A stretch of DNA of 64,000 nt, taken from sequence record NC_054902.1; one strand, written 5' to 3'. Below the pieces are notes generated by a model, which was not told where the DNA came from, made no database searches, and was given only the letters and a program-made list of their open reading frames with translations. Source of the DNA: Enterobacteria phage Aplg8. Position numbers and translations under genes: made by a program. How positions within the stretch are numbered: position 1 is the stretch's first letter; every line of letters starts with the position of its first letter. Of the stretch, positions 24,765-41,974 are shown piece by piece.

Positions 24765-24784
24765 TTTATTATCCTCAGTAGCTA

Positions 24785-24825
24785 TGGTGTTATAATACCA
24801 CAACTAACCGAGGAAGTAAACAACT
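24785..24825 (-). promoter_or_regulatory. T4 early promoter
   Basis: - strand GTTTAC, spacer, GGTATTATAAC. Confidence 0.55.
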
Positions 24826-24827
24826 TT

Positions 24828-25511: not shown

Positions 25512-25786
25512 TAAATTTTCCTTGCTAAATCGCGAATTTGACCTACAGTATAATCTTGGATATAAACTTTATTAATAGGCTCATCAATAAATTTTGCCAT
25601 AGATTCAATATCTTTTTGCATCTCTTCAAGACTGTATATTATCTTTAAAGCTTTTTCGCGAATAGTAATATTTTCAGGACCAGAATTTTTCTCAATGACA
25701 GCTTTAACATTTGTCATAAGAGATTTAAACTGCTGCAAACTTAATTCAATCATTAATAACCGCCTTATAAAGATGGCTAATTTCAC
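25511..25786 (-). CDS. Hypothetical protein, 91 aa
   Basis: ORF; paralogous to 25746-26006. Confidence 0.4.
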   Translation of the reverse strand: MKLAIFIRRLLMIELSLQQFKSLMTNVKAVIEKNSGPENITIREKALKIIYSLEEMQKDIESMAKFIDEPINKVYIQDYTVGQIRDLARKI

Positions 25787-26006
25787 CTAAAATGTAATCA
25801 CTGATTGTAACAGTTTTTACTTCACCACAAAAGAATTCTAACGCAATTAAATCTCGTTCAATTTCTTCTAATTGAAGCATTAACTTGCCAGATTCAATTT
25901 TTACATTTCTACGATTTTTACTATAAGCTATTTCATAAATTTCGCTCACTTTATCTTGAAGCAGATAAAACTGGTCTTTAGTTATTTCCACGAATAGCTT
26001 CCTCAA
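25746..26006 (-). CDS. Hypothetical protein, 86 aa
   Basis: ORF with recognisable similarity to the downstream 91-aa ORF (QF..L...V......LEE...D......V.I.DY..G.I..L). Confidence 0.4.
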   Translation of the reverse strand: MRKLFVEITKDQFYLLQDKVSEIYEIAYSKNRRNVKIESGKLMLQLEEIERDLIALEFFCGEVKTVTISDYILGEISHLYKAVIND

Positions 26007-26238
26007 ATTTAATTAGTAATTTACAGACACTTTCATCTAGTGTAATTACCGTATCTGTATTACTGTGATATGATTGTTTTTCAATTCGTTTAATTGCTAA
26101 TATAGTATCACTTATAAGATAAAGCTTATGAAGGAGCTCAGCTCCTGTTACCATAACATCGAGATTATCTTGCTTATTAGTATGCTTCCTTATACCATCT
26201 ATTAGACGATTTAAATATTTTGAATTGATGTTAATCAT
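25978..26238 (-). CDS. Hypothetical protein, 86 aa
   Basis: ORF immediately downstream of dda. Confidence 0.4.
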   Translation of the reverse strand: MININSKYLNRLIDGIRKHTNKQDNLDVMVTGAELLHKLYLISDTILAIKRIEKQSYHSNTDTVITLDESVCKLLIKFEEAIRGNN

Positions 26239-26244
26239 ATAGCC

Positions 26245-27564
26245 TCACACATAAAACACATCATAACGACCACGTGTTACACCAACATAAAGAAGTTGTT
26301 GAGCTAGTTCAGCATCTGCATAATGAATACAAGGCGTATAAATGAAAGCACGGTCTACAGACATACCCTGAGCTTTATGGAATGTTGATGCAGGAAGTGC
26401 TTTCACTTTACTAAACTGTGATTTAGCATCCCAAAAATCACTCCACGGAGCCTTTCCGCCTTTATTCCAATTTTTATAAGTTTCTGCCGTTTTACCTAAA
26501 AACAGGTTAAACTTATATAGCTCTTCATCAGATGAAATTATTTTAATCTTTTCACGATAATATTCATCATCGCCGTAAGTTTCTACTGTTAAATCCCAAT
26601 GACGAATTAAGTATTCTCCAGGAACACCACGAGCTTTAACAAACGTTGATGTATACTCTGCTTCTATAATACGAACTAATTGTCCATTATTAAAAATAAT
26701 TTCTGATACAGGCTTTCCATCAATTTTATATGTTTTAATTAATGGTTCCTGCATTACAATAATTTCACCAACAATAAAATCTTTATCAGTTTCAAAAATC
26801 TTTTTACGAATAATATTGTTTAACTTGTCAACAGATTTATTCGTAAATGCCATTACGCGATTTTCAAACAAATCATCTAGTGATTTGACGATTGAAAAAT
26901 AATTTACCATAAAATCGCGTAAAGCGGTATCACCAGTAAATCCACGTACTCCATGCCCGTCAACAACTTTATCATAAATCCACTTACCGTTACGAACGTC
27001 AGTAGCTACATCAATAATAGGAGCATTACTGCGTTTAACTTCAGTGAGTTCACACTGATAAAAATCTTTATGCGTAAAGAATGGACTGATATAAGCAGTA
27101 TTTTCTCCTGGGTCAACAGGTCTAATTTGCTTATTATCACCTATTCCAATTATAGTACACCACGGCGGGATAGTTGAAAGCAGAATTTTAAATAGCTTTC
27201 TATCATACATTGACACTTCATCGCAGATTAATACTCTGCATTTAGCTAAATCTGGTACTTCCTTCTGCTCAAAGAGGACATTTTCTTCATATGTTACCGG
27301 GTTAATTTTGAGAATACTGTGAATAGTACTCGCTTCTTTCCCTGATAGTTTTGAAAGAATCTTTTTAGCTGCATGAGTAGGAGCTGCTAAAATAATGCCA
27401 GTTTCGCCCGTAGATATTAAGGCTTCAATGATGAACTTAGTAAGAGTAGTCTTACCAGTACCAGCAGGTCCATTAATAGTTACATGATGTTTCTTTTCTT
27501 TAATAGCCCTCATAACAATGTTAAAGGCATTTTTCTGGCCTTCAGTCAAATCATCAAATGTCAT
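26245..27564 (-). CDS. dda: Dda DNA helicase (SF1B)
   Basis: 439 aa, same as T4 Dda; Walker A GPAGTGKTT; near-identical to T4 Dda as recalled. Confidence 0.9.
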   Translation of the reverse strand: MTFDDLTEGQKNAFNIVMRAIKEKKHHVTINGPAGTGKTTLTKFIIEALISTGETGIILAAPTHAAKKILSKLSGKEASTIHSILKINPVTYEENVLFEQKEVPDLAKCRVLICDEVSMYDRKLFKILLSTIPPWCTIIGIGDNKQIRPVDPGENTAYISPFFTHKDFYQCELTEVKRSNAPIIDVATDVRNGKWIYDKVVDGHGVRGFTGDTALRDFMVNYFSIVKSLDDLFENRVMAFTNKSVDKLNNIIRKKIFETDKDFIVGEIIVMQEPLIKTYKIDGKPVSEIIFNNGQLVRIIEAEYTSTFVKARGVPGEYLIRHWDLTVETYGDDEYYREKIKIISSDEELYKFNLFLGKTAETYKNWNKGGKAPWSDFWDAKSQFSKVKALPASTFHKAQGMSVDRAFIYTPCIHYADAELAQQLLYVGVTRGRYDVFYV

Positions 27565-27872
27565 CGTAAATTCCCTGCAATTGGTATACTAACAATACGC
27601 CCAGTATCTAAAATTCGCCGATATAATCTTTGTGTGTCTACATCAGGCTTAACATGTTTAACTTCTATTTTATTAAACCAAAACTTGCGTGGAGTCTCAA
27701 CTAATCTTGGAATTCCCTTACCTAAAGCTAATCGATACTGCTCTTTAAGAGTAGTAAATACTTTATCAGCAATATTCCATTCAAAAAATACAGCAGGACG
27801 ATGTTCATCAAGCGGAACTGGCGCCGTAAATCCGTCTTTGTCTCGGTAAACTATCGCATATACATAAACCAT
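27561..27872 (-). CDS. dda.1-like hypothetical protein, 103 aa
   Basis: ORF with stop/start overlap with dda. Confidence 0.45.
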   Translation of the reverse strand: MVYVYAIVYRDKDGFTAPVPLDEHRPAVFFEWNIADKVFTTLKEQYRLALGKGIPRLVETPRKFWFNKIEVKHVKPDVDTQRLYRRILDTGRIVSIPIAGNLR

Positions 27873-27873
27873 A

Positions 27874-28629
27874 TTATCCTCGGATAAGTTTAAAAATTGA
27901 ACAATTTAGCGGGTATCCTCTTTTCAGTTTAAGTTTATCAATAAAAGACAAGTTTTGATACCGCTCTACACCTTGAATAATTTTATCACACATATCATAT
28001 TGCATTTCTGCTTCTGACAACTTTTTCACAATTTTCCAATCCGAGCCTTTAAGAAGAACGTTCAGTTTAACAACTTCAGCGCCTTCTGCTATGCGAGAAC
28101 CATCAATACGAGCTTTAAGTGCTATAATTCTTAGCTTAATGTCAGAGGTCTGTTTTGATTTAGAAAGCTGAGAAATGTGTTCAATTCGGTTTTCACGTTT
28201 TTTCTGTATAGCTTTAATTTGATTATAAGTCTTTTTGATTTTAGCCCATTTCTTTTCATCTAAATTTAGTTTATGAACTTTTTTCGCAGATGAACGACCA
28301 ATTCGCAAAGCAAACAAATCACGTTTTTCAATTAACTCCTCTAAAGTATAATCAGAACGAAATGTATTATACTTTTTCTTTACTGCAATAACATTCCCTT
28401 TAATGTATCCAACGTTATTATCAAAACGTTCTAATGATAATTTCTCTCCTTCAATACGATTATCAAAAGGTTCTCCCGAGTAAGCACAAACTTTTTGATC
28501 TAAAATGTTCTTAATGTAATTGAAGTCTAAGTTAAAATCTTTAGAACGTCTTTTTGCAGATGCCTGAGTATGCTCTAAACGACGTTTAATTTTACGAATT
28601 TGGTTATTAGACATATTATGCAGTTTCAT
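27874..28629 (-). CDS. Srd-like protein (putative anti-sigma/sigma-decay factor)
   Basis: 251 aa basic protein at the T4 srd position between modA and dda.1; assignment by synteny only. Confidence 0.45.
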   Translation of the reverse strand: MKLHNMSNNQIRKIKRRLEHTQASAKRRSKDFNLDFNYIKNILDQKVCAYSGEPFDNRIEGEKLSLERFDNNVGYIKGNVIAVKKKYNTFRSDYTLEELIEKRDLFALRIGRSSAKKVHKLNLDEKKWAKIKKTYNQIKAIQKKRENRIEHISQLSKSKQTSDIKLRIIALKARIDGSRIAEGAEVVKLNVLLKGSDWKIVKKLSEAEMQYDMCDKIIQGVERYQNLSFIDKLKLKRGYPLNCSIFKLIRG

Positions 28630-28654
28630 ATTTTTATCACATCTTACGGACGAT

Positions 28655-28700
28655 TGACTACTATACTATAACATTTTTACTTTAACTTGTAAACAACTTT
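28655..28700 (-). promoter_or_regulatory. T4 early promoter
   Basis: - strand GTTTAC (28689-28694), spacer, -10-like TATAGTATAG. Confidence 0.45.
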
Positions 28701-28751
28701 ATGTAAAAATGCTTTAAAAATTTCATGGTATAATGAATCTAAGTCCTTCCA

Positions 28752-29354
28752 TTATAGATTAAATCCTTCAAAATCAAGAGTATAGATAGTGTATGTTGAA
28801 TACTTTTTGTACTCATATCTATCTGCAATTTTAAATACACTTCCAGCTGGTATCATTACTTCTTGTTCATCTGAAACTAATTCCATATTACGATAACGAT
28901 GGCTATCCGGAAACTTAAAGTTTGGATTGTATTCTTTACAGCGTAGAGCTTTTATAGCATACTCCTGGAAATTGAATACCATAGGAGCTTTGAATTCAAA
29001 AATAACTTGTGTGTTGTATTCTAATCCAGAAGCAAAATGTAGAGCTATATTTTTATCATATGAAGCTGATACTACTTTATCAAATGTAATAATATCAATT
29101 CCTTGATTTAACACCTGCTTAGTCTCAACTGGAACACCTCTCCAAAGAGGTTTATCGTTTGGAACCAAACGAGATTTGATTATTTCATTTAACCAAGTAT
29201 GGTCATCTGGCTTATTAGTAATACAATGAATTAAAAGTTCAATTTCAGATAAATTAAACCCTTCAGAAAGTAATTCTTCACGAATAGAAGCACGCACCGA
29301 TGCATCCATTGATTTTATTTTAAAATCTTTTAGTTGCATTACTGAGTATTTCAT
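28752..29354 (-). CDS. modA: ModA ADP-ribosyltransferase
   Basis: 200 aa, same as T4 ModA; R...S...E-type motif (RGVP ... SASYD ... EQEVMIP). Confidence 0.7.
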   Translation of the reverse strand: MKYSVMQLKDFKIKSMDASVRASIREELLSEGFNLSEIELLIHCITNKPDDHTWLNEIIKSRLVPNDKPLWRGVPVETKQVLNQGIDIITFDKVVSASYDKNIALHFASGLEYNTQVIFEFKAPMVFNFQEYAIKALRCKEYNPNFKFPDSHRYRNMELVSDEQEVMIPAGSVFKIADRYEYKKYSTYTIYTLDFEGFNL

Positions 29355-29974
29355 TCAACTACCTCAATATCATAAACTTTAAATGTTCCAAATGAATCGT
29401 GTAATTTTTCTTTTGAAATAGAAGTTATTTTATACTTTCCAATTGGAATCATCCATTCTTGTTCATGTGCAATCATCATTAAGTTATCAGTACGTTCTGA
29501 ATCTAATCCATCAGTATCTTCATATGTATACTTAAACTCAGTATTAGGAGAAGAAAGTATAATATCGCTGATATGGTCAGAGTAATTAAAAGCTTTATCC
29601 GTTTTTAAGCGAAGTACTATTTCAGTGAAATATTCAGCATAAGAAAAAGAACACGCTGTATGCAAACTAGTAGTAAATGAATCTACTCTGTTCGTTGAAA
29701 ACACTTCTCCAACTTGTAAATCTTTAATGAGTTCTTTTGTCGATTTTGATATACCACGATATAGCTGATACGGCGATTTAGTTAAATGCTTTTTAACGAT
29801 TTTATTCAACTGTTGGTGAAGAGCTTCATTCTTTTTGGCTTCCATACATTGCCAAAGAACTGACTGTTCAAAGTCAGTAAATTTTTCACAGACCTTTTTA
29901 TACATATCATATTGAAAATCAACACTTTCAGCTTTTATAGATAGCTGTTCAACATCTGCAAGATTAATAATCAT
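29351..29974 (-). CDS. modB: ModB ADP-ribosyltransferase
   Basis: 207 aa, same as T4 ModB; paralogue of ModA (RGIS ... EQEWMIP). Confidence 0.7.
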   Translation of the reverse strand: MIINLADVEQLSIKAESVDFQYDMYKKVCEKFTDFEQSVLWQCMEAKKNEALHQQLNKIVKKHLTKSPYQLYRGISKSTKELIKDLQVGEVFSTNRVDSFTTSLHTACSFSYAEYFTEIVLRLKTDKAFNYSDHISDIILSSPNTEFKYTYEDTDGLDSERTDNLMMIAHEQEWMIPIGKYKITSISKEKLHDSFGTFKVYDIEVVE

Positions 29975-30041
29975 GATAGCCTCCGTATACTTCAGAAGCT
30001 ATCATATCATTGTTAGGAAGGAAAGTAAACAACTTTTTGAA

Positions 30042-30224
30042 TTATTTTGCCCAGGGAGCCCAGGGCGGAGGGTCAAGATGGTATGAAGCTAGTTCTTCTA
30101 GAAGAGCATCTGGGGCTTCAATTCCATAATTCTGTAATACTATACGGTATTCTTTCTTATAATCACTAGAATCATTCTGGATATTCGTAGAATGATTATC
30201 TTCTAACATCTCAAATAAATCCAT
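30042..30224 (-). CDS. Hypothetical protein, 60 aa
   Basis: ORF. Confidence 0.35.
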   Translation of the reverse strand: MDLFEMLEDNHSTNIQNDSSDYKKEYRIVLQNYGIEAPDALLEELASYHLDPPPWAPWAK

Positions 30225-30232
30225 ACTAATTC

Positions 30233-30703
30233 CTAGCGATAAAAACCAAATTGACGATTAGCTTCAATAATCTTTCTTTCTTCTTCGGACATTCTCCAAC
30301 GTAGTCCAACATCAAAATGAGCCCAGACCATCTTAACAAATGCATTTATATCTTTAATATCTTCAATAATGAATGTTTTACTTTTAGAAGGTTGACTCGC
30401 TAATTTAACTTTATCGTCTTCAAACATGTCAAAAAGACCATATTCATGAGCTCTTTTATAGCCTTTAATAGTTAAAGCTTCAGAAGAAGAAAATGGTGAA
30501 TCTGTATTCTGCAAAATATCTTCAGTATGCTTTATAATTAGAATAATATTTTCTGGATATTTTCTTTCTTTTATATCTTTAATTAAAATATCCGGATTTT
30601 CTGCTAAAGGAATAATTAACGAGCATTTTTTATCAAGTGTATTTACTGATTTACCTTCTTTAGACATAAATCCTATTGAATACAGTTTTGCTACTTCAAT
30701 CAT
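30233..30703 (-). CDS. Hypothetical protein, 156 aa
   Basis: ORF. Confidence 0.45.
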
Positions 30704-30856
30704 GTGATTTCCTCTTGCCTACTAATGGACCATCAGGAATTTTGTTTTCCTGGATATATTTCTCATTTTCTTCCATCATTTTACTACCGATTTTAAGAAG
30801 CAAATCTAAGGCTTCATTTGCTTTATCCTTAGCCTCTTCTAACGTCATGTTCTTGT

Positions 30857-31060
30857 TCATGATTTATCCCCATAGATGTCTCTCATCAATTTAAGCACTG
30901 AGCGTTCTAATTTCTTTTCTTTCTCAGCACTAATCATTGATTTCATCCATTCTTCTGATTCGTTCTGCATTTCTTTATTTGCCTGTTCAACCCAACCATC
31001 ATCAATATACATTGAGTTTGGTCTACTGAACCATTCAAGCATCTTCTTCAGAACTTTCAT
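30857..31060 (-). CDS. Hypothetical protein, 67 aa
   Basis: ORF. Confidence 0.35.
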
Positions 31061-31520
31061 TTGTTTTACCTAAAACAATAGTAGGAGCATCGTCAAATTC
31101 ATGAATTTTTAGCAATTTTGGATTTAAATTATTCCATACATAATAAATAAAGTATGATAAAGCATCTTCACTCGCAATTATAAATTTATTTCCTTCATTT
31201 ATTTTCCAGTCATATACTGAATCGTACGAATAAAAAGATAAAGGATTACCATTATATTGTTCTGCGCTAACATTAATGTATTCGGATTTAGTAAATGCTT
31301 CAATTGCTCTAAACGGACTATTTGGCACAGTTTCAATAATTCCGATCTTTTTAAGTTTTATTTCAACATCTTCTGGAACTGGCATTGAAACGAAATTTTC
31401 TACGAGATACATAGGGTTACAATAACCCCTATCAATCACTACGGCTACAGTAATTGGAACATCTTTAGCAAACGACATGCTATTACTGCTAATATACATT
31501 TCAAACAAAATCGCTTCCAT
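31035..31520 (-). CDS. Hypothetical protein, about 161 aa (mrh-sized)
   Basis: Start at MEAILFEMY avoids overlap with the upstream ORF. Confidence 0.4.
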
Positions 31521-31528
31521 AATTTTCC

Positions 31529-31870
31529 TCAATCGCAAGATGTAGATGAACAACCAGAATCACAAGAACTTCCACATGAATCACCTGCCCATACATGAAC
31601 AGGAACATTGGTGTCATATGAATCAGAACTAGACTGTGTATTTTGTGTGTTAGATGATGCAGTAGGTGTTGACCAGCGCCAAGGATTTTTATAATATTCT
31701 TGGGCTTCTTCATAAGTCATAGTAACTGCTTCTACTGTTCCATCTCCCATATAAACATACTCAACTACAGTTAAAGGAAGGTAGTCATTTGAAATAGGAA
31801 CTACACCTTCTCCAGGAGTCGTAGAGAAAAAATCCGTAAAGAAACTTTTAAACCAATTAAAAATAAACAT
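31529..31870 (-). CDS. Hypothetical protein with Cys/Ser-rich C-terminal tail
   Basis: 113 aa; C-terminus ...[20 protein letters not shown]. Confidence 0.4.
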
Positions 31871-32076
31871 TACAAAAAGCCTCTTTTGAATTCGACTTGC
31901 TTCTCACCATAATCATATCGAATCTCTGCATTAAATTCGACAGAACCATCTGCGTACATCATAAATGAATGCACAACAACTTCTGTAGACCATGGTTGTA
32001 GTTCATATTTCTTCATTACATGCCGTGAAATGATAATATCTAAATCTTCATTTGGTTTAATCCAACGATTTAACAT
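31870..32076 (-). CDS. Hypothetical protein, 68 aa
   Basis: ORF downstream of an early promoter. Confidence 0.4.
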   Translation of the reverse strand: MLNRWIKPNEDLDIIISRHVMKKYELQPWSTEVVVHSFMMYADGSVEFNAEIRYDYGEKQVEFKRGFL

Positions 32077-32097
32077 AGTGCTCTCCTCTATAAGATA

Positions 32098-32135
32098 ATT
32101 CTATTATACCATACTCATTTTGGAAAGTAAACCAT
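32098..32135 (-). promoter_or_regulatory. T4 early promoter
   Basis: - strand GTTTAC, spacer, GGTATAATAG. Confidence 0.5.
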
Positions 32136-32146
32136 TTAAATGAAAA

Positions 32147-32168
32147 AAGGACTCCCGAAGGAGTCCTT
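32147..32168 (-). terminator. Rho-independent terminator downstream of soc
   Basis: 9-bp stem aaggactcc/ggagtcctt with cgaa loop, followed on the - strand by a U-run. Confidence 0.6.
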
Positions 32169-32172
32169 GAAT

Positions 32173-32418
32173 TTATTCACCAGTTACTTTCCACAAATCT
32201 TCATTTGCAGCAATCCATTCAGTACGTTGATTTTCTTCATATACTGTAGAATATGCTGCTTTTTCTGAAGGGAATGTCTGATAATGAGCACCAGAAATTT
32301 TGTGAACGTCAGAATAAAGAGGGAAAGCTACAGAAATTTCCTTTCCTTCAATTTTCTTATTTCCATCTAATTTCTGCTCAAATGTTTTGATATTAACATA
32401 ACCGCGAGTACTAGCCAT
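32173..32418 (-). CDS. soc: Small outer capsid protein Soc
   Basis: 81 aa; MASTRGYVNIKTFEQKLDGNKKIEGKEISVAFPLY... matches T4 Soc. Confidence 0.85.
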   Translation of the reverse strand: MASTRGYVNIKTFEQKLDGNKKIEGKEISVAFPLYSDVHKISGAHYQTFPSEKAAYSTVYEENQRTEWIAANEDLWKVTGE

Positions 32419-32434
32419 GTAATTCTCCTTTTAT

Positions 32435-32644
32435 TTAAATTACATGATTATTTATAATAAATTCTCGCGGAACGTTAAAATACCCAATTTTAGTTAATAT
32501 AACAATATCGCCGTTAATAATTACCGGAGAATAATCGGCTGGAGCATTAAATTTCCAATGGGCTCTAATATTATATCCATCAGAACCAAATGCTCGACTA
32601 GCCGGTCTCCCGGCTTTTTGCCACGCGTAGAAATCAAATTTCAT
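32435..32644 (-). CDS. Hypothetical protein, 69 aa
   Basis: ORF between 56 and soc. Confidence 0.35.
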   Translation of the reverse strand: MKFDFYAWQKAGRPASRAFGSDGYNIRAHWKFNAPADYSPVIINGDIVILTKIGYFNVPREFIINNHVI

Positions 32645-32835
32645 TTTGAATGATCTATAATTAATTTTAAATCTTCTTCACTGACAAAAATTTCGTCAGG
32701 ACCTTCTATAACTTCAACCATACGAAGTTGATTAGTTAAGAGCTCACATACGAGCTCCTTGTTATAATCTTTAAATAGCTGGTCAATACGTTTCTTGCGG
32801 GCTTTCTTAAGCTGGCGTTTATTTAAACGAGCCAT
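32641..32835 (-). CDS. Hypothetical protein, 64 aa
   Basis: ORF between 56 and soc. Confidence 0.35.
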   Translation of the reverse strand: MARLNKRQLKKARKKRIDQLFKDYNKELVCELLTNQLRMVEVIEGPDEIFVSEEDLKLIIDHSK

Positions 32836-33353
32836 TAATAGCCTCTGTCTTGACGAGCGAAGTTTTCAGCATTTTTCAGATAATAAAGTTTAAATATTTC
32901 TTCAGCTGACATTCCAAGAGCAATGAATTTATTCATGAAAAAGTGAAATTGATCAATCAGTTCAAATTTAATTTCAAGTTGATCTTCAGGAGATAAATCT
33001 TGAATTTTCTTGGATTGCATTTCAGAATAACGTTTCTTCCAAGGTTTCCATACAGCAGAAGCTTCTTTTTCACCATTACTCATACCACCAAGAGAAGTAT
33101 ATAGCTCGCGAGTTTCGTCTGCGATATAATCGTCTTGGTTTCGCAGCCAAGCAAGAACTTCTCCTGCAGTTTCAAGTGAATCAGGATGACGATTTGTTTC
33201 TGGTTTATCATTAGCCAAACGAATCTGTAAATGCCGCTGCATATCAAGCATAACCTGCAGTGGGTCAATATTGTGCATAATATTCTCAGCATATGCACGA
33301 TTTGCTTTATCAACACCTTCGATCAAATGAGCACATTCATTAAAGTAAGCCAT
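32835..33353 (-). CDS. 56: dCTP pyrophosphatase gp56 (MazG-like)
   Basis: About 172 aa from MAYFNECAHLIEGVDKA... with GAAAGGAAA ribosome-binding site; the ORF-track N-terminal extension is probably not translated. Confidence 0.85.
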   Translation of the reverse strand: MAYFNECAHLIEGVDKANRAYAENIMHNIDPLQVMLDMQRHLQIRLANDKPETNRHPDSLETAGEVLAWLRNQDDYIADETRELYTSLGGMSNGEKEASAVWKPWKKRYSEMQSKKIQDLSPEDQLEIKFELIDQFHFFMNKFIALGMSAEEIFKLYYLKNAENFARQDRGY

Positions 33354-33424
33354 TATTTTTCCTTTCAATTCATGGGTTAGTAGATTAATTATACAATAAA
33401 TATATAAAGCAATAAGGAGGACAT

Positions 33425-33625
33425 ATGATACAAAAATTAATGGCACTTGTTAATGCCATAAAAGGTAATAAGAAACGTATAGCTTTTACTATTTCTGCTA
33501 TGGTAGGAATTTTACTCTGGAACTTTATTTTATCACCTGTTGCAATTGCACATGGTATTAATATTCCAGTAGTTACTCTTGATACATTCGTAGATTTAGC
33601 ATTTGCTTTAGTTGGGTTAATTTAA
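33425..33625 (+). CDS. Small membrane protein, 66 aa, on the opposite strand in the 56-61 gap
   Basis: Strong AAGGAGG ribosome-binding site 5 nt before the ATG; two hydrophobic segments; its stop overlaps the stop of gene 61. Confidence 0.5.
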   Translation: MIQKLMALVNAIKGNKKRIAFTISAMVGILLWNFILSPVAIAHGINIPVVTLDTFVDLAFALVGLI

Positions 33626-34650
33626 ATCTTAGCATATTTAGATAACCTCATTTTAGCCATCAACCCCTGGGCAATATTATTTTTCATATATTCCATAATT
33701 TGTTCAGGGGTTGCACCTTCCTTTCTAATCATATCATTAACATCTTTTGATTTCCAGGGAGATTTATCCCAAAACATAACTCTTTCTCCTGCATCAACTA
33801 ATTTAGTCATTCGTTTGATAGTGTCAGGATGACGAGGTTCATTATCTAAAACCCACACACGTCTATCTTTAAATGGAACAACTTCTAGGTCTAATTGACC
33901 ACCCGTAATAGCTATACCATTTTCAATAAAAAGTGAATCTATAGGTCCTTCTAGAACATATACATCACCATCTTTAACTCGTTCGACTCCATAGATTTTT
34001 GTTGCTTCAGGATAAGCTTTGATGGTGATATATTTTTGGGGAGCATCTTTCTTTAATGCACGTCCTTGAAAAGACTCAGCTTTTCCATTAGCATTATAAA
34101 TTGGAATAACAAGACGAGGCTCAGAAATTTCCTTTTTGTATGTTCCCGGTGCTATGCTATTAACTAATTTAGGCCATTCGGTTGTAAACCAAAGATATTT
34201 CCATTTATCCTTTGGAATACAACGAGCTTTTACATATTTTATAATTGGATGGTCTTCCGCCAGTTTATCTAATCTAACACATGACGGAAGAGATTTAATT
34301 ATTTTCTTCTCAGGTTGCTTAGGAAGTTCTTTAGGTTTTTCTACTGGACGACTTTTACCTTTTTCTTTTCTTATTTCAAAGATATACTCACGATATAAAT
34401 CAGGTTCAAACTCCTTTAAATATATTCCGATTGGTGCATGATAATTACAGTTATAACAATGAATATTTCCTTCATTATTATCACCATAATACCATCCACG
34501 AGCTTTATTCTGGTCGGTTTTTGAATCTCCACAAACAGGACATCTAAACCGCAATTTAAAAGTTGAACTATTATTTACTTGTGTGAATTTAGGTAAATGA
34601 GCTAATGCACGGTATGCAAACTCATTATCAATCCAAGGTATTGATGACAT
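33622..34650 (-). CDS. 61: DNA primase gp61
   Basis: 342 aa, same as T4 gp61; N-terminal zinc ribbon CPVCGDS...CYNC. Confidence 0.9.
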   Translation of the reverse strand: MSSIPWIDNEFAYRALAHLPKFTQVNNSSTFKLRFRCPVCGDSKTDQNKARGWYYGDNNEGNIHCYNCNYHAPIGIYLKEFEPDLYREYIFEIRKEKGKSRPVEKPKELPKQPEKKIIKSLPSCVRLDKLAEDHPIIKYVKARCIPKDKWKYLWFTTEWPKLVNSIAPGTYKKEISEPRLVIPIYNANGKAESFQGRALKKDAPQKYITIKAYPEATKIYGVERVKDGDVYVLEGPIDSLFIENGIAITGGQLDLEVVPFKDRRVWVLDNEPRHPDTIKRMTKLVDAGERVMFWDKSPWKSKDVNDMIRKEGATPEQIMEYMKNNIAQGLMAKMRLSKYAKI

Positions 34651-34652
34651 TT

Positions 34653-34817
34653 TTACTCTTCTTTTTCTTTAGATTCCTCTTTCTTCTTTTTAGGAATCTG
34701 TTCAGGACCTTTATTTACTACAGCACCTGACGTTGTTCCAGTAGAGATATTTTCAGGATTACCGCCTGAATCTCCAGCGACCATATCTTCTTTAATAAAT
34801 TCTTTATATGTTTTCAT
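34653..34817 (-). CDS. Hypothetical Lys/Glu-rich protein, 54 aa
   Basis: Fills the gap between the 208-aa ORF and gene 61. Not in the ORF track. Confidence 0.3.
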   Translation of the reverse strand: MKTYKEFIKEDMVAGDSGGNPENISTGTTSGAVVNKGPEQIPKKKKEESKEKEE

Positions 34818-34818
34818 A

Positions 34819-35445
34819 TTAACCTCTATTCATAAAAGCATTAAAAATTTGGTCATCAATAGAAACATTTACTTTAGACTGTTTTTCAGATGGCAATTCA
34901 TATCCACATATTACAATTTTGTGATCAATATCAAAATATACAGAAGCAATATGATTAATGATGTTTTCAGTAAAGTCTAAATCAACATCAATATCTTTTT
35001 GACCACAGCCCAAAGGATAAATAATGCGAGTAATTCGATTATCTTTAACAAAGATTCCACCGACATACTCTGTACTGCGTTTAAAGTCTACACGCCGACG
35101 AAATGAAAAATATTCAGGCTCTTTATGAGCTCGGCTCATAGGACACAACGAATAACTAGAATAAGAGATGTCAAATCCTACGCCTTCGATATGAGCCAAA
35201 GTGTCATGATTAAACCAATTATAATCGTACGCCAAATCCATTAGATTATAATATGTAAAAGGCACCGGATTAACATCATTAGTCACAAGCATGTAATTAG
35301 CAACTGCTATAATTTCATTGTTTTTAACGAATACAAACCGTGATTGATGCGAATGACCTGGACCCGCGTTTTCACGATTAATGATATAACACTGGGCACC
35401 TTTATATTTGTATGTATCTTTGCACTTGTGCATTTGATAGAGCAT
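34819..35445 (-). CDS. Hypothetical protein, 208 aa
   Basis: ORF between sp and 61. Confidence 0.5.
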   Translation of the reverse strand: MLYQMHKCKDTYKYKGAQCYIINRENAGPGHSHQSRFVFVKNNEIIAVANYMLVTNDVNPVPFTYYNLMDLAYDYNWFNHDTLAHIEGVGFDISYSSYSLCPMSRAHKEPEYFSFRRRVDFKRSTEYVGGIFVKDNRITRIIYPLGCGQKDIDVDLDFTENIINHIASVYFDIDHKIVICGYELPSEKQSKVNVSIDDQIFNAFMNRG

Positions 35446-35738
35446 TATTCACCTACCACTTCAGCGATGATATTTTTGTTATTAAAGTTTTTATCGCAAT
35501 ACAGAACATAATTATACTGCATTACACCACCAGACTTAAGTTGTTTTTGCACTTCAGCTTTCATTTCAGGACGATCACGCTCAACGATATTCATAATATC
35601 CGCTTCAATTTGAGTTTCAACTTCAGTCTGATCCGCAGTCATAGACCATTCGCACAAATCTTTATCATAACCTGCCATAGCAGGCTGAGCAGCGCAAGAA
35701 GCTAAAGCAAAAATTGTAGCAAAGATAAATTTTTTCAT
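35445..35738 (-). CDS. sp: Spackle-like periplasmic protein (superinfection exclusion; lysozyme inhibitor)
   Basis: 97 aa with signal peptide MKKFIFATIFALASCAAQPAMA; T4 position (61.3) and size. Confidence 0.55.
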   Translation of the reverse strand: MKKFIFATIFALASCAAQPAMAGYDKDLCEWSMTADQTEVETQIEADIMNIVERDRPEMKAEVQKQLKSGGVMQYNYVLYCDKNFNNKNIIAEVVGE

Positions 35739-35759
35739 GATAATCTCCTCAGTAGTTTA

Positions 35760-35800
35760 TGTTTATATAGTATCTCAATTTCCAACAAAAGTAAACAGTT
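35760..35800 (-). promoter_or_regulatory. T4 early promoter
   Basis: - strand GTTTAC (35791-35796), spacer, GATACTATATAAAC. Confidence 0.5.
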
Positions 35801-36098
35801 ATTTTAAAATTTCTGCGTAATCACATGTTACAAACTGTTTCTCTAGCTTGACGATTTTACGAAAGTATCTTTTACATTGACGAATCTGTCGCTTAGTAGG
35901 GCGCACAGCAAACTTAATAAATTCCACTCGACCAAATGGAGGGCTTTCTTCTGATGGAATATCTAACACCAATTCCCACGTATCTGCAATAAGTGCTTTG
36001 AATTGCGTATTTTTCCTGACGTTATACGGAGTAGGTTTAAATAAAACAATATGCATATTATCCTCGGCAATCCACTTCACATACTTTCTTGTCATCAA
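35799..36098 (-). CDS. Hypothetical protein, 99 aa
   Basis: ORF. Confidence 0.4.
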   Translation of the reverse strand: MMTRKYVKWIAEDNMHIVLFKPTPYNVRKNTQFKALIADTWELVLDIPSEESPPFGRVEFIKFAVRPTKRQIRQCKRYFRKIVKLEKQFVTCDYAEILK

Positions 36099-36240
36099 TG
36101 AAAGCTTTAACTAATGCTTTATTAACTTCAGCATATTGAGTAGTAGCCCATTGAACGTCATCTTTCATCATTGTGGTTTCTTTAGTAAACATGCTTTCAT
36201 TCTTAAACCACCCCATAAAAACTACCTTTACCAATTCCAT
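36058..36240 (-). CDS. dmd: Dmd-like protein (inhibitor of RnlA/LsoA toxin RNases)
   Basis: 60 aa, immediately downstream of gene 41, as for T4 dmd (61.5); assignment by size and position. Confidence 0.5.
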   Translation of the reverse strand: MELVKVVFMGWFKNESMFTKETTMMKDDVQWATTQYAEVNKALVKAFIDDKKVCEVDCRG

Positions 36241-36298
36241 AACAATCTCCTCATTTAACCAACAAGACTACTATACCATAGTCTTGTCAGCTTGTAAA

Positions 36299-37726
36299 CT
36301 AAAATTTTAATTCATTCGCCAAAGCATCTAACTGAGCTCGAGTGGATTCATTTCTTTGATAGCGATTCTGCTCAGCCTGAATCTGTTGTGAACCTGCTAC
36401 TTCGTTCACTTCAGTTGGAGTAGAATCTTGTTCAATTTCTACCCATTTCTGATTTCCTTTTTGAACACCCATCAAAAACTTATTCCATTTGTTCTTATCG
36501 CCATATCGTGATTTGATTTGCTTAATGAGTTGTTGTTCAGCAGCTGCTAGCTCCTCGGTTTCAATGACCGCAAGCATAAAATCAGCTGTTGCTGGAAGAC
36601 CAGCAGATTCTGCAATATCGCTCATGTTAACATCAGAAGAGTCCCAAGCTTGTTTACCGACCTGTGCTGCAGTCCAAAGAACAGTTTCGGTTTCAACAGC
36701 AAGAGCACGCAATTCCTCTGCAATAGCTTTAACAGTTGTGTAACTATTTTCTGAATAAACTCGGATGCGACAAGATTTACAAATACCTAGATAGTCGACA
36801 ATAATGATTGTTGGAACAAAATTCTTTTTGAGCTTCAATTCATTCAAGAGAGACCTGAATGTATTAGCGTCTGCTCCACCAGTAGGATACTGTTTAACGA
36901 TTAAACGACCGAGGGTAGATTTCTCACGCCATTTTTCCATTTTTCCTTTATACTCGGCGTAAGAAATATGTCCATCATCAATATCGTCAAGAGAAACATC
37001 GAGCATATTAGCATCAATACGTTTAGCACAGACTTCTTCTGCCATTTCCATGGAGATATAAAGAACGTTATGACCAAGCTGCAAATAATCTGCTGCTAAT
37101 GAACAAAGTCCTAATGATTTACCAACGTTAACGCCAGCCATTAAAACGTTCAGTGTTCCAGTCTCAGCTCCGCCTTTAGTAATTTTGTTTAGAATTCTGA
37201 GTTTAAATGGAACCTTACGAGCTTTATTCATATAAGATAGCCAACGCGCTTCGTAGTCATCCATCCAATCATGACCAACGTAACTATCAAATGAAATTGA
37301 TAATGCTTGGCGCATGATGTCAGGAATAGCACCAACATCCGGCATTTTCTTATTTCGTTTTTCCGGAGGAAGTTCAGCATTAGTTTGAATTTCGATTATT
37401 TTAGACGTAGCATTAAACATCGCCCTTTGCTGAACATATTTTTCTGTTTCTTTTACTAACCAACTGTGGTCTTCCGGAGAATCAGCTAGTTTTGAAATAA
37501 GTGTTTTTACACCAGAATATTCTGTTTCAGTAAATGAACTATTTTCTAATGCAACATTTAACGCATTAATAGATGGAACGCTATGGTACTCATTAACATG
37601 AGATTTAATTAATTTGAATGTATTTTTAGCTGGACCACTTTCAAAATATTCTGAATCCATATATGGCCAAACTTTTGAAAAATAAGCTTGATCAAATATA
37701 AGATGAGAAAGAATAATTTCTACCAC
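36299..37726 (-). CDS. 41: Replicative DNA helicase gp41 (DnaB-like)
   Basis: 475 aa, same as T4 gp41; Walker A GVNVGKS. Confidence 0.9.
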   Translation of the reverse strand: MVEIILSHLIFDQAYFSKVWPYMDSEYFESGPAKNTFKLIKSHVNEYHSVPSINALNVALENSSFTETEYSGVKTLISKLADSPEDHSWLVKETEKYVQQRAMFNATSKIIEIQTNAELPPEKRNKKMPDVGAIPDIMRQALSISFDSYVGHDWMDDYEARWLSYMNKARKVPFKLRILNKITKGGAETGTLNVLMAGVNVGKSLGLCSLAADYLQLGHNVLYISMEMAEEVCAKRIDANMLDVSLDDIDDGHISYAEYKGKMEKWREKSTLGRLIVKQYPTGGADANTFRSLLNELKLKKNFVPTIIIVDYLGICKSCRIRVYSENSYTTVKAIAEELRALAVETETVLWTAAQVGKQAWDSSDVNMSDIAESAGLPATADFMLAVIETEELAAAEQQLIKQIKSRYGDKNKWNKFLMGVQKGNQKWVEIEQDSTPTEVNEVAGSQQIQAEQNRYQRNESTRAQLDALANELKF

Positions 37727-37735
37727 ACTTACTCC

Positions 37736-38098
37736 TTAAAAGAATTTAAACTTTTTCTTTGACCTTTTATTAAATGCATCTTGTAGTTGCATTGTAATAC
37801 ATTTTTCTACATGAGGAGCTAACTCAGCTTTTCTTTCTTGGTCAAGAACAGCAAAGTCCATTACAACCTTTCCATCAACCCAATCCAGTTTAGTTACATA
37901 CACTATATGTGTAGAACCATCTTCTAGTTTAATGACAATCTCCTGGATAACATTTTCCATGGCAGATTTAATTATCTTAAGAGATTCATTAAAAAGACGT
38001 TCTTTTCTTTCTTCTTCCCCCTCCGAAGAGGGGGATTCGTCGATAATTTCTAGATCTAAATCTAAATCATCTTTATTCATTAAATTCTTCCATATCAC
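37736..38098 (-). CDS. gp40-like protein (head assembly)
   Basis: 120 aa between uvsX and 41, as for T4 gene 40. Confidence 0.45.
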   Translation of the reverse strand: MIWKNLMNKDDLDLDLEIIDESPSSEGEEERKERLFNESLKIIKSAMENVIQEIVIKLEDGSTHIVYVTKLDWVDGKVVMDFAVLDQERKAELAPHVEKCITMQLQDAFNKRSKKKFKFF

Positions 38099-39254
38099 TT
38101 AACTGTTCGAGGTCAGTTTCTAAATCAGCTGCTGATTTACTTTTACTTTCTGGAGATTTAAATTTTTCAACCTTTGAGTTAATCAATTCATCAACTTCAG
38201 CTTCAACAATTTCATTACTATCAATAGCACCTAATTGATAAGCACGTTTAATAGCATCTCGGAATGGTTGATGCTTAAATAAAGGACCCCAGAATGTAGT
38301 GCAGTTGGTATCTTTTGCACGCCAAGATTTTTCTTCGCGAATCATCTCGCCGGTTTCTTCGTCAAGAAATTCACGAGCATACCAGCCATTTTTAGGTTTT
38401 ACTACAAATCCTAATTCTAGAGCCATATCTAACAATCCAGAATAAGGATCGATACCACCGTCAAATTTAACATCAATAAAGAATTTACTTTTTTCTTTAA
38501 CGGTACGAGATTTTTCTACATTTAGAACAAATTGATACCCCTGAAGATCAGAACCATCTTTAATCTGGCGTTTACCGATAATGAATACAGTATCAGCCGA
38601 ATACATTACGCCTGTACCACCTGTCATCACGGTTTTACTAAACATTTCAATTGTTTCAATTGTATGGTTAACCGCAACGCACGGAATATTTTTAATGCTA
38701 AAATAAGGAGTAACAATACGGAATAATGACTTCAGTGATTTAGCACGAGTCATATCTGCCACAGATTTTTCATTCAAGGCATCTTCCGTTTCTTTCTTAG
38801 AAGCCATATTACCAATTGAGTCGATGAATACTATAACCTTTTCACCACGCTCAATAGCTTCAAGCTGATTCACCATATCAATTTTCAGCTGTTCAACTGA
38901 CTGGATTGGCGTATGAATTACTCGTTCCGGGTCAACTCCCATGGATCGCAAATAAGCTGGAGTAATACCAAATTCGCTATCATAGAATAGACAAACCGCG
39001 TCAGGATATTTGTTCAAATACGCCGCAACCATAGTCAAAGACATATTTGATTTAAAGTGTTTAGAAGGACCTGCAAAAATAGTTAAACCAGACTGCATGC
39101 CGCCATCAATCGCACCAGAAATAGCAATATTAAGCATTGGGATTTTTGTACGGATTACATCCTTTTCATTAAAGAATTTAGATGTAGTCAGTTCAGCAGT
39201 CATTTTAGAAGTGGAAGCTTTAATCAAACGGGATTTTAAATCTGCAATAGACAT
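38073..39254 (-). CDS. uvsX: UvsX recombinase (RecA-like)
   Basis: 393 aa; MSIADLKSRLIKASTSKMTAEL..., Walker A GPSKHFKS; T4 UvsX-like. Confidence 0.9.
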   Translation of the reverse strand: MSIADLKSRLIKASTSKMTAELTTSKFFNEKDVIRTKIPMLNIAISGAIDGGMQSGLTIFAGPSKHFKSNMSLTMVAAYLNKYPDAVCLFYDSEFGITPAYLRSMGVDPERVIHTPIQSVEQLKIDMVNQLEAIERGEKVIVFIDSIGNMASKKETEDALNEKSVADMTRAKSLKSLFRIVTPYFSIKNIPCVAVNHTIETIEMFSKTVMTGGTGVMYSADTVFIIGKRQIKDGSDLQGYQFVLNVEKSRTVKEKSKFFIDVKFDGGIDPYSGLLDMALELGFVVKPKNGWYAREFLDEETGEMIREEKSWRAKDTNCTTFWGPLFKHQPFRDAIKRAYQLGAIDSNEIVEAEVDELINSKVEKFKSPESKSKSAADLETDLEQLSDMEEFNE

Positions 39255-39331
39255 TCATTTTTTCCATAGGCATCATTATATTTTCCTCACTGGTTAAAGA
39301 TAGAGTAATTATAACACAATAAATTTAGGCA

Positions 39332-40174
39332 TTAATCAACTGCTATTGGATGAATAGCATTAAACTTATGAAATGCTTCTGATTTTTCTTTACGCGAAAC
39401 ACACATGCGAAGAACCTTTAATGGCTCGTCTTCTTCACCCAACGATTTTCGTTTTTCAATATTCGACGTTTTCCAACGAGCTTGCTCTGGAAACTCTCTA
39501 TTGATTTGCTCAAGCGCTCTATTATGTTTAGAATTACTACGAATTGAACTACACCCACCAGGAGCTTGCGCTTTACCTGATACAACCAGATATTTGAACA
39601 AGGCCAAATGCGGATAACCTTGATTAATTAAATTGAGAAATGCATACATATCTTCGCACAAATCAATTTTTCCATACCCAATTTGTTCTGTCGTAAGTTT
39701 TCCGAGGTCATACCATGTATTCGTGAATCCATATGAATTTTCACGATAATTACCCCAAGATGAAGTAATTTTAAAAATAGGTAGACGAGCATGGCCATGA
39801 TAATACCCGCAATCCATGGCATCCTCAACATATTGAATCAATTCATAGAACTGTTCACGAGTCAATTGATTGACTTTATCTACGCAACGACGATCATCTC
39901 TTTTTCGCATTGAACTCATACGAATAGTAGTATCATCGTCAATCATCCAGATTCGTTGGCCTGCATACATATCAGTAATTGCTTTACGAGTACCGGCAAT
40001 TCCGTTTACATCATCAGGAATAGTTATAATTTTAGCTCTAGACCCATAGGCATCATAATAAGCTTTTTCTTCATGTTCACGCACTACAATATGGGGTTCA
40101 TAATCAGTCGGAAACATATCAAGGGCAGAAACTGCCCCTACACGTTGATAACTTGGAATTACGAATTGAATCAT
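39332..40174 (-). CDS. Putative GT-A fold glycosyltransferase (DxD motif) at the beta-gt locus; candidate hmC-glucosyl modifying enzyme
   Basis: About 280 aa; N-terminal FVIPSYQR strand and IWMIDDDTT (DxD) motif; sits between uvsX and 42 where T4 has beta-gt; ATG overlaps the gene 42 TGA. Confidence 0.55.
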   Translation of the reverse strand: MIQFVIPSYQRVGAVSALDMFPTDYEPHIVVREHEEKAYYDAYGSRAKIITIPDDVNGIAGTRKAITDMYAGQRIWMIDDDTTIRMSSMRKRDDRRCVDKVNQLTREQFYELIQYVEDAMDCGYYHGHARLPIFKITSSWGNYRENSYGFTNTWYDLGKLTTEQIGYGKIDLCEDMYAFLNLINQGYPHLALFKYLVVSGKAQAPGGCSSIRSNSKHNRALEQINREFPEQARWKTSNIEKRKSLGEEDEPLKVLRMCVSRKEKSEAFHKFNAIHPIAVD

Positions 40175-40911
40175 TTCCACTCACCGTTATAATCTTTTTT
40201 CACAATATGAGTTTCGCCAGTATTCCACCAATGATCAACCAAGTAAAAATGACGAGAATATACATGAAGACTTCCAACATTCCATATAATAGAACCTGCT
40301 TTATACTGACGAGTTGAATCGCCGGCATTCAAATCAGATACTAATTTATCTAATACGTATTTTTGCCATGCATAATCATTACGGAATCCGAAGACCACGT
40401 CATTTGAGCGCATGCTTACTACTGCATTGACTTTCTTATCACGAATCAGGTACTGTACTGTATTAGTACACATGAAATCTGACATACCATCTTTATTGTA
40501 GTCAAATTGCATGGATGGACGAGTATAAATCATGATACCACGTCGAGAATCAGGATTTTGACCAAGTTCAGCTAAACACATATCATACTGGGCATAGTTA
40601 TCTTCTGACCAAATAGCCCAACCATAATTCGAGTTAATTTCGCCTTTAGAAGATGCTACCTGCTGCCAAATCTTTGGTGTTTCGCCTGGAATATCTTTGA
40701 CAAACAGACTTTGAGACTTGTACCATTCAAGTTCACGCTGAATGTATTCATCATTAAGAGCGCCAAAAATAAAGGGTTCATCTGCTACAAATGATGCGCC
40801 AATAATTTCAATAGTTTTAACACCGGTTTTATCAACTACGAAATCTTTTTCTTTTAATGCAAGCCCCAAATGAAGACGGATTTCTTCAACTGTCATAGAG
40901 TCACTAATCAT
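40171..40911 (-). CDS. 42: dCMP hydroxymethylase gp42
   Basis: 246 aa, same as T4 gp42; thymidylate-synthase-like fold motifs. Confidence 0.9.
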   Translation of the reverse strand: MISDSMTVEEIRLHLGLALKEKDFVVDKTGVKTIEIIGASFVADEPFIFGALNDEYIQRELEWYKSQSLFVKDIPGETPKIWQQVASSKGEINSNYGWAIWSEDNYAQYDMCLAELGQNPDSRRGIMIYTRPSMQFDYNKDGMSDFMCTNTVQYLIRDKKVNAVVSMRSNDVVFGFRNDYAWQKYVLDKLVSDLNAGDSTRQYKAGSIIWNVGSLHVYSRHFYLVDHWWNTGETHIVKKDYNGEWK

Positions 40912-41064
40912 TTAAACCTCAATTGATACATTCATATTTAAATTGTAACAGTAATAAACCCCACCCTATGATAAGAGTTGGAATCATAGCAGGAACTGTT
41001 ACGCTATAGTATATACTTATTATAACCATCAAGATTAAAAGCAACACTGTTATAATTTTGCTTT

Positions 41065-41316
41065 TCATTCTTTCTCTCTGATGATAATTACCTGATTTGG
41101 CTGTGCAGACTTTTTAGTTTCACCAGCAATTGACCAAATAAATGTAATAAACCAACCAATAATTGACCAGTTAAACAGTAAAGATGTGAAAAAGATTCCT
41201 ACTGTCGATTTTGACCCACGCATCAAGGCGATAAACCATGGAAGCATGTATATAATAATAGCCAACACACCTGAAACTAAAACCATAAAAATTGAACCTG
41301 CTACTAAAGTTTCCAT
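41065..41316 (-). CDS. imm: Immunity protein Imm (superinfection exclusion membrane protein)
   Basis: 83 aa with two TM segments, same size and position as T4 Imm. Confidence 0.7.
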   Translation of the reverse strand: METLVAGSIFMVLVSGVLAIIIYMLPWFIALMRGSKSTVGIFFTSLLFNWSIIGWFITFIWSIAGETKKSAQPNQVIIIREKE

Positions 41317-41323
41317 GTTTTCC

Positions 41324-41704: not shown

Positions 41705-41714
41705 AATAATTTCC

Positions 41715-41963: not shown

Positions 41964-41974
41964 ATCCGTATTAG

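Follow-up and report, generated by a model that had tools for sequence, protein, structure and literature searches.

The 64,000-nt stretch of the genome of Enterobacteria phage Aplg8 analyzed here (NC_054902.1; ~38% of the genome; hereinafter, the window) includes the interval between gene 56, which encodes a dCTPase/dUTPase, and gene 61, which encodes the DNA primase. In bacteriophages T4 and T2, the DNA adenine methyltransferase gene dam is located between these two genes, as had been correctly stated in the original prediction, which was made from the sequence alone; in the window, dam is absent from this site. The gap (33354-33621) is 268 bp long, in agreement with the predicted ~270 bp, and contains only a 66-amino-acid open reading frame (ORF) and a 71-bp spacer. 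The features of this locus are as follows:

32835..33353, minus strand: gene 56 (dCTPase/dUTPase), 172 amino acids, from the ORF list; weak Pfam dUTPase_2 match; homologues in Bas42, KRT47 and T4 are annotated as dCTP pyrophosphatase
33388..33393, minus strand: TATAAT, the -10 hexamer of the gene 56 middle promoter, which is MotA-dependent; the T4 record X01416 has its annotated -10 at the aligned position
33395..33402, plus strand: late-promoter-like octamer AATAAATA, the A(-13) variant of the T4 consensus TATAAATA; predicted transcript start near 33408
33405..33413, minus strand: MotA box ATTGCTTTA, separated from the downstream -10 by 11 nt; corresponds in the alignment to the mot-box ATTGCTT of X01416
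33413..33414, no strand: empty cargo site; between these bases, T2-like phages carry an ORF with a predicted restriction-endonuclease fold and dam, with spacers, and T4 carries dam and a 23-codon stub
33414-33420, plus strand: Shine-Dalgarno sequence AAGGAGG, identified by inspection of the sequence; 4 nt separate it from the ATG
33425..33625, plus strand: gene for a 66-amino-acid small membrane protein (predicted); PHROG 2024; KRT47_gp34, RB32ORF030w, Bas42_0142; unannotated in RefSeq T4 and T2
33440..33459, minus strand: terminator-like hairpin ATGGCATTAACAAGTGCCAT with a T-run, within the 5' end of the ORF; the gene 61 stop is ~165 nt upstream of it; from a consensus scan only
33622..34650, minus strand: gene 61 (DNA primase), 342 amino acids; its stop overlaps the small-ORF stop

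Very probably, the window comes from a Tequatrovirus whose 56-61 interval is the common allele without cargo. The 3.1 kb around this interval are 98% identical to the corresponding regions of Bas42 (AndreasVesalius), KRT47, FriedrichMiescher and RB18. Among the records searched, KRT47 is the best match over 25 kb (97.6% identity), and the window is collinear throughout with KRT47 150035..167485 followed by 1..46046; none of these records is identical to the whole window. The dam-free Tequatroviruses RB18, KRT47, Bas42, RB32/RB51 and Shfl2 have an identical architecture, with only point changes, and in RB18, both the 211-bp junction and the ORF protein are 100% identical to those in the window. 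The T4 and T2 loci (NC_000866 16270-18963 and NC_054931 14634-17867, respectively) share with the window the order and strand of genes 56, 61, 61.1, 61.2, sp, 61.4 and dmd.

The organization of the interval

The small ORF is encoded on the strand opposite to its neighbors, immediately 3' of gene 61 and with gene 56 on its other side, and its TAA stop codon (33623-33625) shares two bases with the gene 61 stop (33622-33624, minus strand). The sequence and the hydropathy profile fully bear out the predicted opposite-strand ORF of 66 amino acids, with AAGGAGG, two hydrophobic segments and the stop overlap with gene 61. Window positions 33340-33413 align with the T2 and T4 56-dam intergenic region up to the MotA box, and positions from 33414 onward align with the Shine-Dalgarno sequence and start of the ORF; the exact would-be dam site is therefore 33413|33414.

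Upstream of gene 56, the minus strand contains a box of the form (a/t)(a/t)TGCTT(t/c)A at ~11-13 nt before a TATAAT-like -10, and this MotA-type middle promoter is shared with T4 and T2, where the MotA box abuts the dam stop codon. The T4 counterpart is P(M)16.53, annotated in the 1984 T4 record X01416; according to NC_000866, the oriA primer RNA is the gene 56 transcript driven by this promoter, making it the source of the oriA primer transcript. In the window allele, the late-promoter-like octamer on the plus strand lies within the spacer of the gene 56 middle promoter, whereas in T4 and T2, it is located upstream of the cassette. The hairpin at 33440-33459 could end gene 61 transcripts ahead of the gene 56 middle promoter. 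As a separate observation, this hairpin is identical in T4 and is not conserved in Mosigvirus.

A conserved small gene facing the primase gene

The product of the small ORF has the sequence MIQKLMALVNAIKGNKKRIAFTISAMVGILLWNFILSPVAIAHGINIPVVTLDTFVDLAFALVGLI, which includes the peptides LMALVNAIK and IAFTISAMVGILLWNF. All 18 loci compared, which come from three genera, have an intact frame without stops. Within genera, the ratio of nonsynonymous to synonymous divergence (dN/dS) is 0.15 in Tequatrovirus, 0.10 in Mosigvirus and 0.43 in Gaprivervirus; between genera, the synonymous divergence (dS) is saturated, at 1.2-3.0. The variable alignment columns are distributed over the three codon positions as 45/21/56, with the second position varying the least. 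The ORF is under purifying selection and is a real, old gene.

The original prediction regarded the membrane protein ORF as a gain that replaced dam, but this view did not survive comparison with T4 and T2, both of which carry the ORF as well as dam. In T4, the 309-bp gap between dam (16846-17625) and gene 61 (17935-18963), which is unannotated in NC_000866, contains the ORF on the plus strand at 17738-17938 (L003 3239..3439); 64 of the 66 residues (97%) are identical to those of the window protein, and the overlap with the gene 61 stop is present as well. The T2 copy (L008 2501-2701, plus strand), also 97% identical, is likewise unannotated in RefSeq. Newer T4 records (e.g. OZ209023) and most relatives do annotate the ORF. 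Thus, of the difference from T4 and T2 expected upon alignment of the 56-61 interval, the absence of dam holds, and the gain of the small ORF does not. The ORF coexists with dam in all inspected dam-positive relatives, namely, T4, T2, APTC-EC-2A, where it adjoins dam, and L024, a contig from a divergent lineage.

A tblastn search with the ORF matched 691 phage records, of which 501 are at least 80% identical and 190 are 44-57% identical (Mosigvirus, Gaprivervirus), and a Klebsiella-phage homologue used as the query added 169 further records (Klebsiella phages, Gelderlandvirus, Moonvirus and S16-like), for a total of ~860 phage records spread over six or more Tevenvirinae genera. Inspection of nine annotated loci (T4 and eight in five genera) showed the ORF converging on the primase gene, and it adjoins this gene in every locus inspected within these genera. 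The Gelderlandvirus UTK0003 version encodes 69 amino acids and shows the same overlap with the gene 61 stop, and Klebsiella phage RCIP0032 has a 63-amino-acid ORF at the same position; no such ORF is present at the 56-61 site of Karamvirus EnA02 or Krischvirus KFS-EC. Both the small ORF and the dam-free arrangement are already known, having been deposited and annotated in hundreds of Tequatrovirus genomes; the ORF is annotated as “hypothetical” in many records, as “predicted membrane protein” in KRT47 (KRT47_gp34), and as RB32ORF030w in RB51, with QXV75996.1 as a further entry.

Scans of the 66-amino-acid protein against Pfam and NCBIfam found no family, and PHROGs yielded only a family without an assigned function, PHROG 2024 (E = 2.2e-31; residues 3-66 against profile positions 2-65 of 65, that is, 64 of 65 positions), from which the window protein shows no difference. 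A HMMER search of 1.84 billion representative sequences detected only close and moderately diverged phage homologues, and none outside this phage group. Three large proteins among the matches (P0032, P0036 and P0037) were rejected as repeat or composition artefacts; of the two inspected, one consists of propeller-like “LLWNF” repeats and the other of SH3-like repeats. Another match, P0034, which looks like a bisulfite-converted (C-to-T) read of the ORF, was left out. A fold search of BFVD retrieved a family member and two other 63-amino-acid phage proteins (one from Enterobacter phage CIP9), with no function attached.

The Gelderlandvirus and Klebsiella-phage homologues are only 24-25% identical to the window protein, and down to 24% identity, W32, N33, P38, G44 and P48 remain invariant (alignment A5); the core pattern W-N-[F/Y] x4 P x5 G x3 P is present in or after the hydrophobic helix. 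Kyte-Doolittle hydropathy is ~1.9-2.05 for residues 19-42 and ~1.6-1.95 for residues 47-66, the latter with two Asp residues, and AlphaFold2 (pLDDT, the predicted local distance difference test score, 78) predicts helices at residues 2-13, 16-42 and 52-63. From these data, we infer that the product is a 63-69-amino-acid inner-membrane protein. The N-terminus appears to be amphipathic, with a basic cluster, KGNKKR, just before the membrane segment, and is therefore probably cytoplasmic; it would be followed by one strongly hydrophobic helix with the invariant W-N-[F/Y] and by the conserved P...G..P loop. The short, hydrophobic and acidic C-terminal segment might be periplasmic or interfacial, or might make a second membrane pass.

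The sequence upstream of the ORF points to late expression. The octamer AATAAATA is of the TATAAATA type, which spans positions -13 to -6 and needs no -35 element; of the 50 T4 late promoters listed in PMC2988020, 32 are perfect matches to TATAAATA and 9 have A at -13. In each of the 18 loci, xATAAATA precedes the ATG by 24-30 nt, even though the contexts differ among dam-positive, dam-free, Mosigvirus and Gaprivervirus phages, and in L024, the octamer is a perfect TATAAATA. The GGAG core of the Shine-Dalgarno sequence is present in all 18 loci as well, and GGAGG in 15. The heptamer ATAAATA is rare in the window, with 11 copies on both strands against 38 +/- 5.5 expected (~3.5-fold under-represented), at these positions:

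Plus strand: 2914, 3433, 7419, 8136, 31143, 33396, 35017 and 48197
Minus strand: 10236, 32455 and 61179

Six of the 11 copies precede, by 20-33 nt, the ATG start codon of an ORF of 66 or more amino acids; soc, the gene 49-position ORF and the small ORF are among them, and two more appear, by position, to be late genes of the tail-fibre/holin cluster. Such scarcity and placement before ORFs fit selection against stray late promoters. The octamer is TATAAATA in front of soc and AATAAATA, the same variant as in the small ORF, in front of the gene 49-position ORF, in both cases 20-33 nt before the ATG. Given the conserved octamer and Shine-Dalgarno sequence, the depletion of the heptamer and its placement before start codons, we infer a gp55-dependent late promoter at 33395-33402, with a start near 33408. 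Most likely, gp55-RNA polymerase uses AATAAATA for late transcription of the small gene, with AAGGAGG as the site of translation initiation. In contrast to soc and gene 49, which are T4 late genes within early regions, the small ORF is oriented against the early genes around it, its transcript would extend antisense into gene 61, and its late expression is a prediction. A preprint on differential RNA sequencing of T4 reports 150 phage transcription start sites, of which 22 are antisense.

Two alternative interpretations of the ORF have to be considered. It could be no gene at all, the stretch being maintained for cis elements, such as a gene 61 terminator or promoters for dam or 56. The terminator-like hairpin on the minus strand inside the ORF, the putative early promoters that X01416 places in this stretch, the missing annotation in RefSeq T4 and T2, and a literature search that found no expression data for the ORF are all compatible with this possibility. 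Nevertheless, it appears highly improbable, given that the frame remains open across genera with saturated dS and evolves under low dN/dS within them, that second codon positions vary the least, that Gelderlandvirus and Klebsiella phages, at 24% identity, still have the W-N-[F/Y] ... P ... G ... P motif and the length, and that the Shine-Dalgarno sequence and xATAAATA are retained across four unrelated upstream contexts; furthermore, judging from the sequence, the hairpin is not retained in the Mosigvirus homologue. The other alternative is that the ORF encodes a holin or pinholin, as implied by the UniProt entry name of a single family member. The size of 66 amino acids, the two hydrophobic segments and the probable late expression would be appropriate for a holin, and the member from phage OE5505 is labelled “Holin” in UniRef and BFVD. 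However, the other named members are “hypothetical” or “uncharacterized”, and we take this label to be an automatic name. The C-terminus (...FALVGLI) is hydrophobic, without a charged tail; no lysis cassette surrounds the gene, which is flanked by those for the primase and the dCTPase, whereas the endolysin, the T holin and pseT.2/pseT.3 are encoded elsewhere in KRT47; a T holin is already present (KRT47_gp247); and there is no match to a holin family in Pfam, NCBIfam or PHROGs. We therefore consider the holin assignment very unlikely. A late-acting role in the envelope of the real, membrane-associated product favored here, for example, in lysis timing or exclusion, is a weak guess, and rather unlikely to be correct as it stands.

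The cargo slot and the absence of dam

In T4, dam is a dispensable accessory gene. A tblastn search of the window with T4 Dam and Escherichia coli Dam produced no real match (best E = 0.022), whereas in the positive controls, the T4 and T2 loci were recovered at 1e-175. The best match, that of T4 Dam at 63747-63887, was rejected because it is antisense to a real 173-amino-acid ORF (63434..63955), in a frame full of stops. A six-frame scan of the window for [DNS]PP[YFWH] returned only two matches, both irrelevant, and no Dam homologue with FxGxG and DPPY motifs was found in the window, in line with the original prediction that its ORFs lack methyltransferase motifs; in particular, there is no Dam gene between 56 and 61. 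Searching for Dam elsewhere led to the same result: none is encoded in the rest of the window or in KRT47, the closest relative with a complete genome. Over the full 167,485 bp of this genome, tblastn detected neither T4 Dam, E. coli Dam nor the nuclease-fold ORF that accompanies dam in T2, and the KRT47 annotation contains no methyltransferase; a homologue of the nuclease-fold ORF is missing from the window, too.

The arrangement in the window had been predicted to be a notable difference from T4 and T2, but it turned out to be ordinary. Counted with a 211-bp probe across the junction, alleles in which 56 and the ORF are contiguous, without dam, are present in 292 of the 500 Tequatrovirus-type records, compared to 182 records with a T4-type Dam (at least 90% identity). 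The dam-free junction is thus the commonest allele among the relatives of this phage. In other genera, nothing lies between 56 and the ORF in Mosigvirus G2469, Gaprivervirus DK-13, Gelderlandvirus UTK0003 or Klebsiella phage RCIP0032.

These comparisons are consistent with the 71-bp spacer being a cargo slot that is empty here and in most relatives, holds a two-gene cassette in T2-like phages, and holds dam together with a nuclease-gene stub in T4. The additional gene of the cassette is an ORF of the T2_032 type, 181-186 amino acids long, which precedes dam in T2 and is full length in 155 records. It contains a D...ExK motif (RFDIVIS...IIEIKHQ) and shows sub-threshold Pfam matches to the DpnII (GATC-specific), BanI and HsdR N-terminal nuclease families. 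A PDB sequence search with this ORF returned nothing significant, and only fold comparison was informative. The protein is predicted to have the PD-(D/E)xK restriction-endonuclease fold, with putative nuclease activity and putative GATC specificity. In L024, the pairing of the nuclease-fold ORF with a D12 methyltransferase is retained at 63% identity. Compared to type II restriction-modification pairs, in which a methyltransferase gene adjoins a gene for a PD-(D/E)xK-fold protein, the T2-like cassette has a nuclease that is putative, its Pfam matches being below the threshold; no such pair was found in the window. In T4, only the last 23 codons of the nuclease-fold ORF remain just upstream of dam (NC_000866 17642-17710; L003 3143-3211, minus strand), 100% identical; T4 therefore carries the unusual allele at this locus, a deletion derivative of the T2-type cassette.

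With the slot empty here, dam is, by this reasoning, likely to be absent from the entire phage genome, and the GATC sites would lack phage-made N6-methyladenine. Dam could still be made from a gene outside the window, since only ~38% of the genome is in view, and other genera carry Dam at other loci. This scenario is hardly credible, given that KRT47, which is collinear with the whole window, encodes no Dam, E. coli Dam homologue or other annotated methyltransferase in its 167,485 bp, that records with the empty junction outnumber those with T4-type Dam as given above, and that no Dam class of intermediate identity was seen that could cover the remaining records. The origin of the empty site is a different matter. 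Loss of dam, as originally proposed, is not shown, because the empty site may equally be ancestral, with the dam cassette inserted later. Our analysis favors an old polymorphism, with a likely ancestral empty site, over a recent deletion, because the dam-free spacer is a divergent haplotype, with many differences from the T2/T4 56-dam spacer across ~40 bp, although the flanking genes are ~97% identical, because the site is empty in other genera, because Jiaodavirus KP179 carries dam elsewhere, in the rIIB-ndd region, and in view of the allele counts. Recent deletion of dam from a T4/T2-like ancestor is possible, if somewhat unlikely: deletions in the slot do happen, as indicated by the 23 codons that T4 keeps of the ORF that is intact in T2, the cassette could be old given the nuclease-dam pair at the same site in L024, and several other Tevenvirinae genera have Dam homologues. 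Apart from the spacer divergence and the empty sites in Mosigvirus, Gaprivervirus, Gelderlandvirus and the Klebsiella phage, what speaks against a recent loss is that neither dam nor the nuclease ORF has left an alignable trace in the 71-bp spacer, in the window or in KRT47. A comparison for direct repeats flanking the dam cassette showed that both T2 flanks align weakly to the window spacer, and the flank-to-flank score, 23, is at the chance level for this AT-rich DNA.

Several observations weigh against our overall interpretation, that is, a Tequatrovirus with the cargo-free allele and a late-expressed membrane protein gene next to it. In distant homologues of the small protein, the C-terminal segment is short for a membrane span, which makes the topology uncertain. 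The octamer has G at -13 in T4 (GATAAATA), the Gelderlandvirus homologue is preceded only by TATTAAATA, and a literature search turned up no direct demonstration that the ORF is transcribed or translated; nothing relevant was found, either, on ribosome profiling or small ORFs in T4, or on how dam is distributed. Beyond the 64-kb window, the absence of dam rests on KRT47 and on the record counts. Finally, with the nuclease-dam pair of L024 at the same site, the cassette may be old and may have been lost repeatedly, and T4 demonstrates that deletions do occur in the slot.

Although the phage is apparently Dam-free, GATC is strongly depleted, with an observed/expected ratio of 0.34 in the window (68 vs 203) and 0.36 in KRT47. 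Among the 16 four-base palindromes, GATC has the lowest ratio, followed by TCGA at 0.69, in a comparison that is limited to the window and KRT47.

Implications and neighboring genes

The architecture of the interval is ordinary and of little import for the window itself, but is worth the attention of annotators and of researchers on phage conflicts, on account of an unannotated T4 gene and of the fold partner of Dam. RefSeq T4 and T2 omit a conserved, selected and probably expressed gene, which omics data mapped to these records will miss, and T4 is atypical at this locus, so that comparisons that take T4 as the norm mislead. The contents of the slot (nothing, dam, or the nuclease-fold gene with dam) may affect sensitivity to host defenses that depend on or sense methylation and, possibly, competition among phages. 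Phage methyltransferases, including Dam, have been reported to trigger retron defense (10.1101/2023.08.16.553469), and hence one possible cost of carrying dam.

Taken together, these elements can be combined into a speculative picture, one that we regard as doubtful: an overlooked gp55-dependent late gene of T4 would encode an inner-membrane envelope protein with a periplasm-facing HG..P..L[D/E] motif, its transcription would contribute an antisense shut-off of gene 61, and the slot next to it would be free of the GATC pair. If so, the ORF transcript, with no room for a terminator, would run antisense into the primase gene and help to shut off 61, and the empty slot would mark a phage without the GATC restriction-modification-like pair (Dam and the restriction-endonuclease-fold protein) of T2-like phages. 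Such a pair could bias inheritance in mixed infections, and Dam may be a liability against methylation-sensing retrons.

Other insertions were noticed in the same interval of related phages. In Gaprivervirus DK-13, an HNH homing endonuclease gene (L005 2872-3621, minus strand) is inserted between the small ORF and 61, and beside it, at ~2760-2875 on the plus strand, the small ORF is present a second time, as a partial and diverged copy (LWNLLVVPIAATQGVHLPQVTTEH...GIPS*). This second copy resembles the L024 version and looks like a donor flank brought in by homing. In place of the small membrane protein ORF, the 61-56 interval of Karamvirus EnA02 contains an ORF of 93-94 amino acids (MN.EQHA.LKL.EEC.EVA...; L025 2523-2807, plus strand) on the same strand as gene 61, and a counterpart of this ORF adjoins the nuclease-dam pair in L024 (3157-3438, plus strand). 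The placement of the 93-94-amino-acid ORF is further evidence for the interval as a cargo hot-spot.

The flanking region of the window contains several additional genes. Between soc and 56, soc.1 (69 amino acids, with a DUF7422 match) and soc.2 (64 amino acids) are located at 32435-32835 on the minus strand, an arrangement of the T2 type, whereas T4 has the homing endonuclease gene segF there. Gene 61.2 (34819-35445, minus strand) encodes a full-length match to Pfam AdfA (anti-DarT factor A; E = 1.5e-136), and Spackle (35445-35738) and 61.1 are next, as in T4. Farther away, an ORF for a 238-amino-acid HNH-type (Mob-like) endonuclease (48237-48953, plus strand) starts 33 nt behind a perfect TATAAATA (48196-48203) and abuts the 3' end of a minus-strand ORF of 562 amino acids (48946-50634) that is gene 46-like, judging from the collinearity with KRT47; the ~790-bp segment that holds the endonuclease ORF is absent from KRT47.

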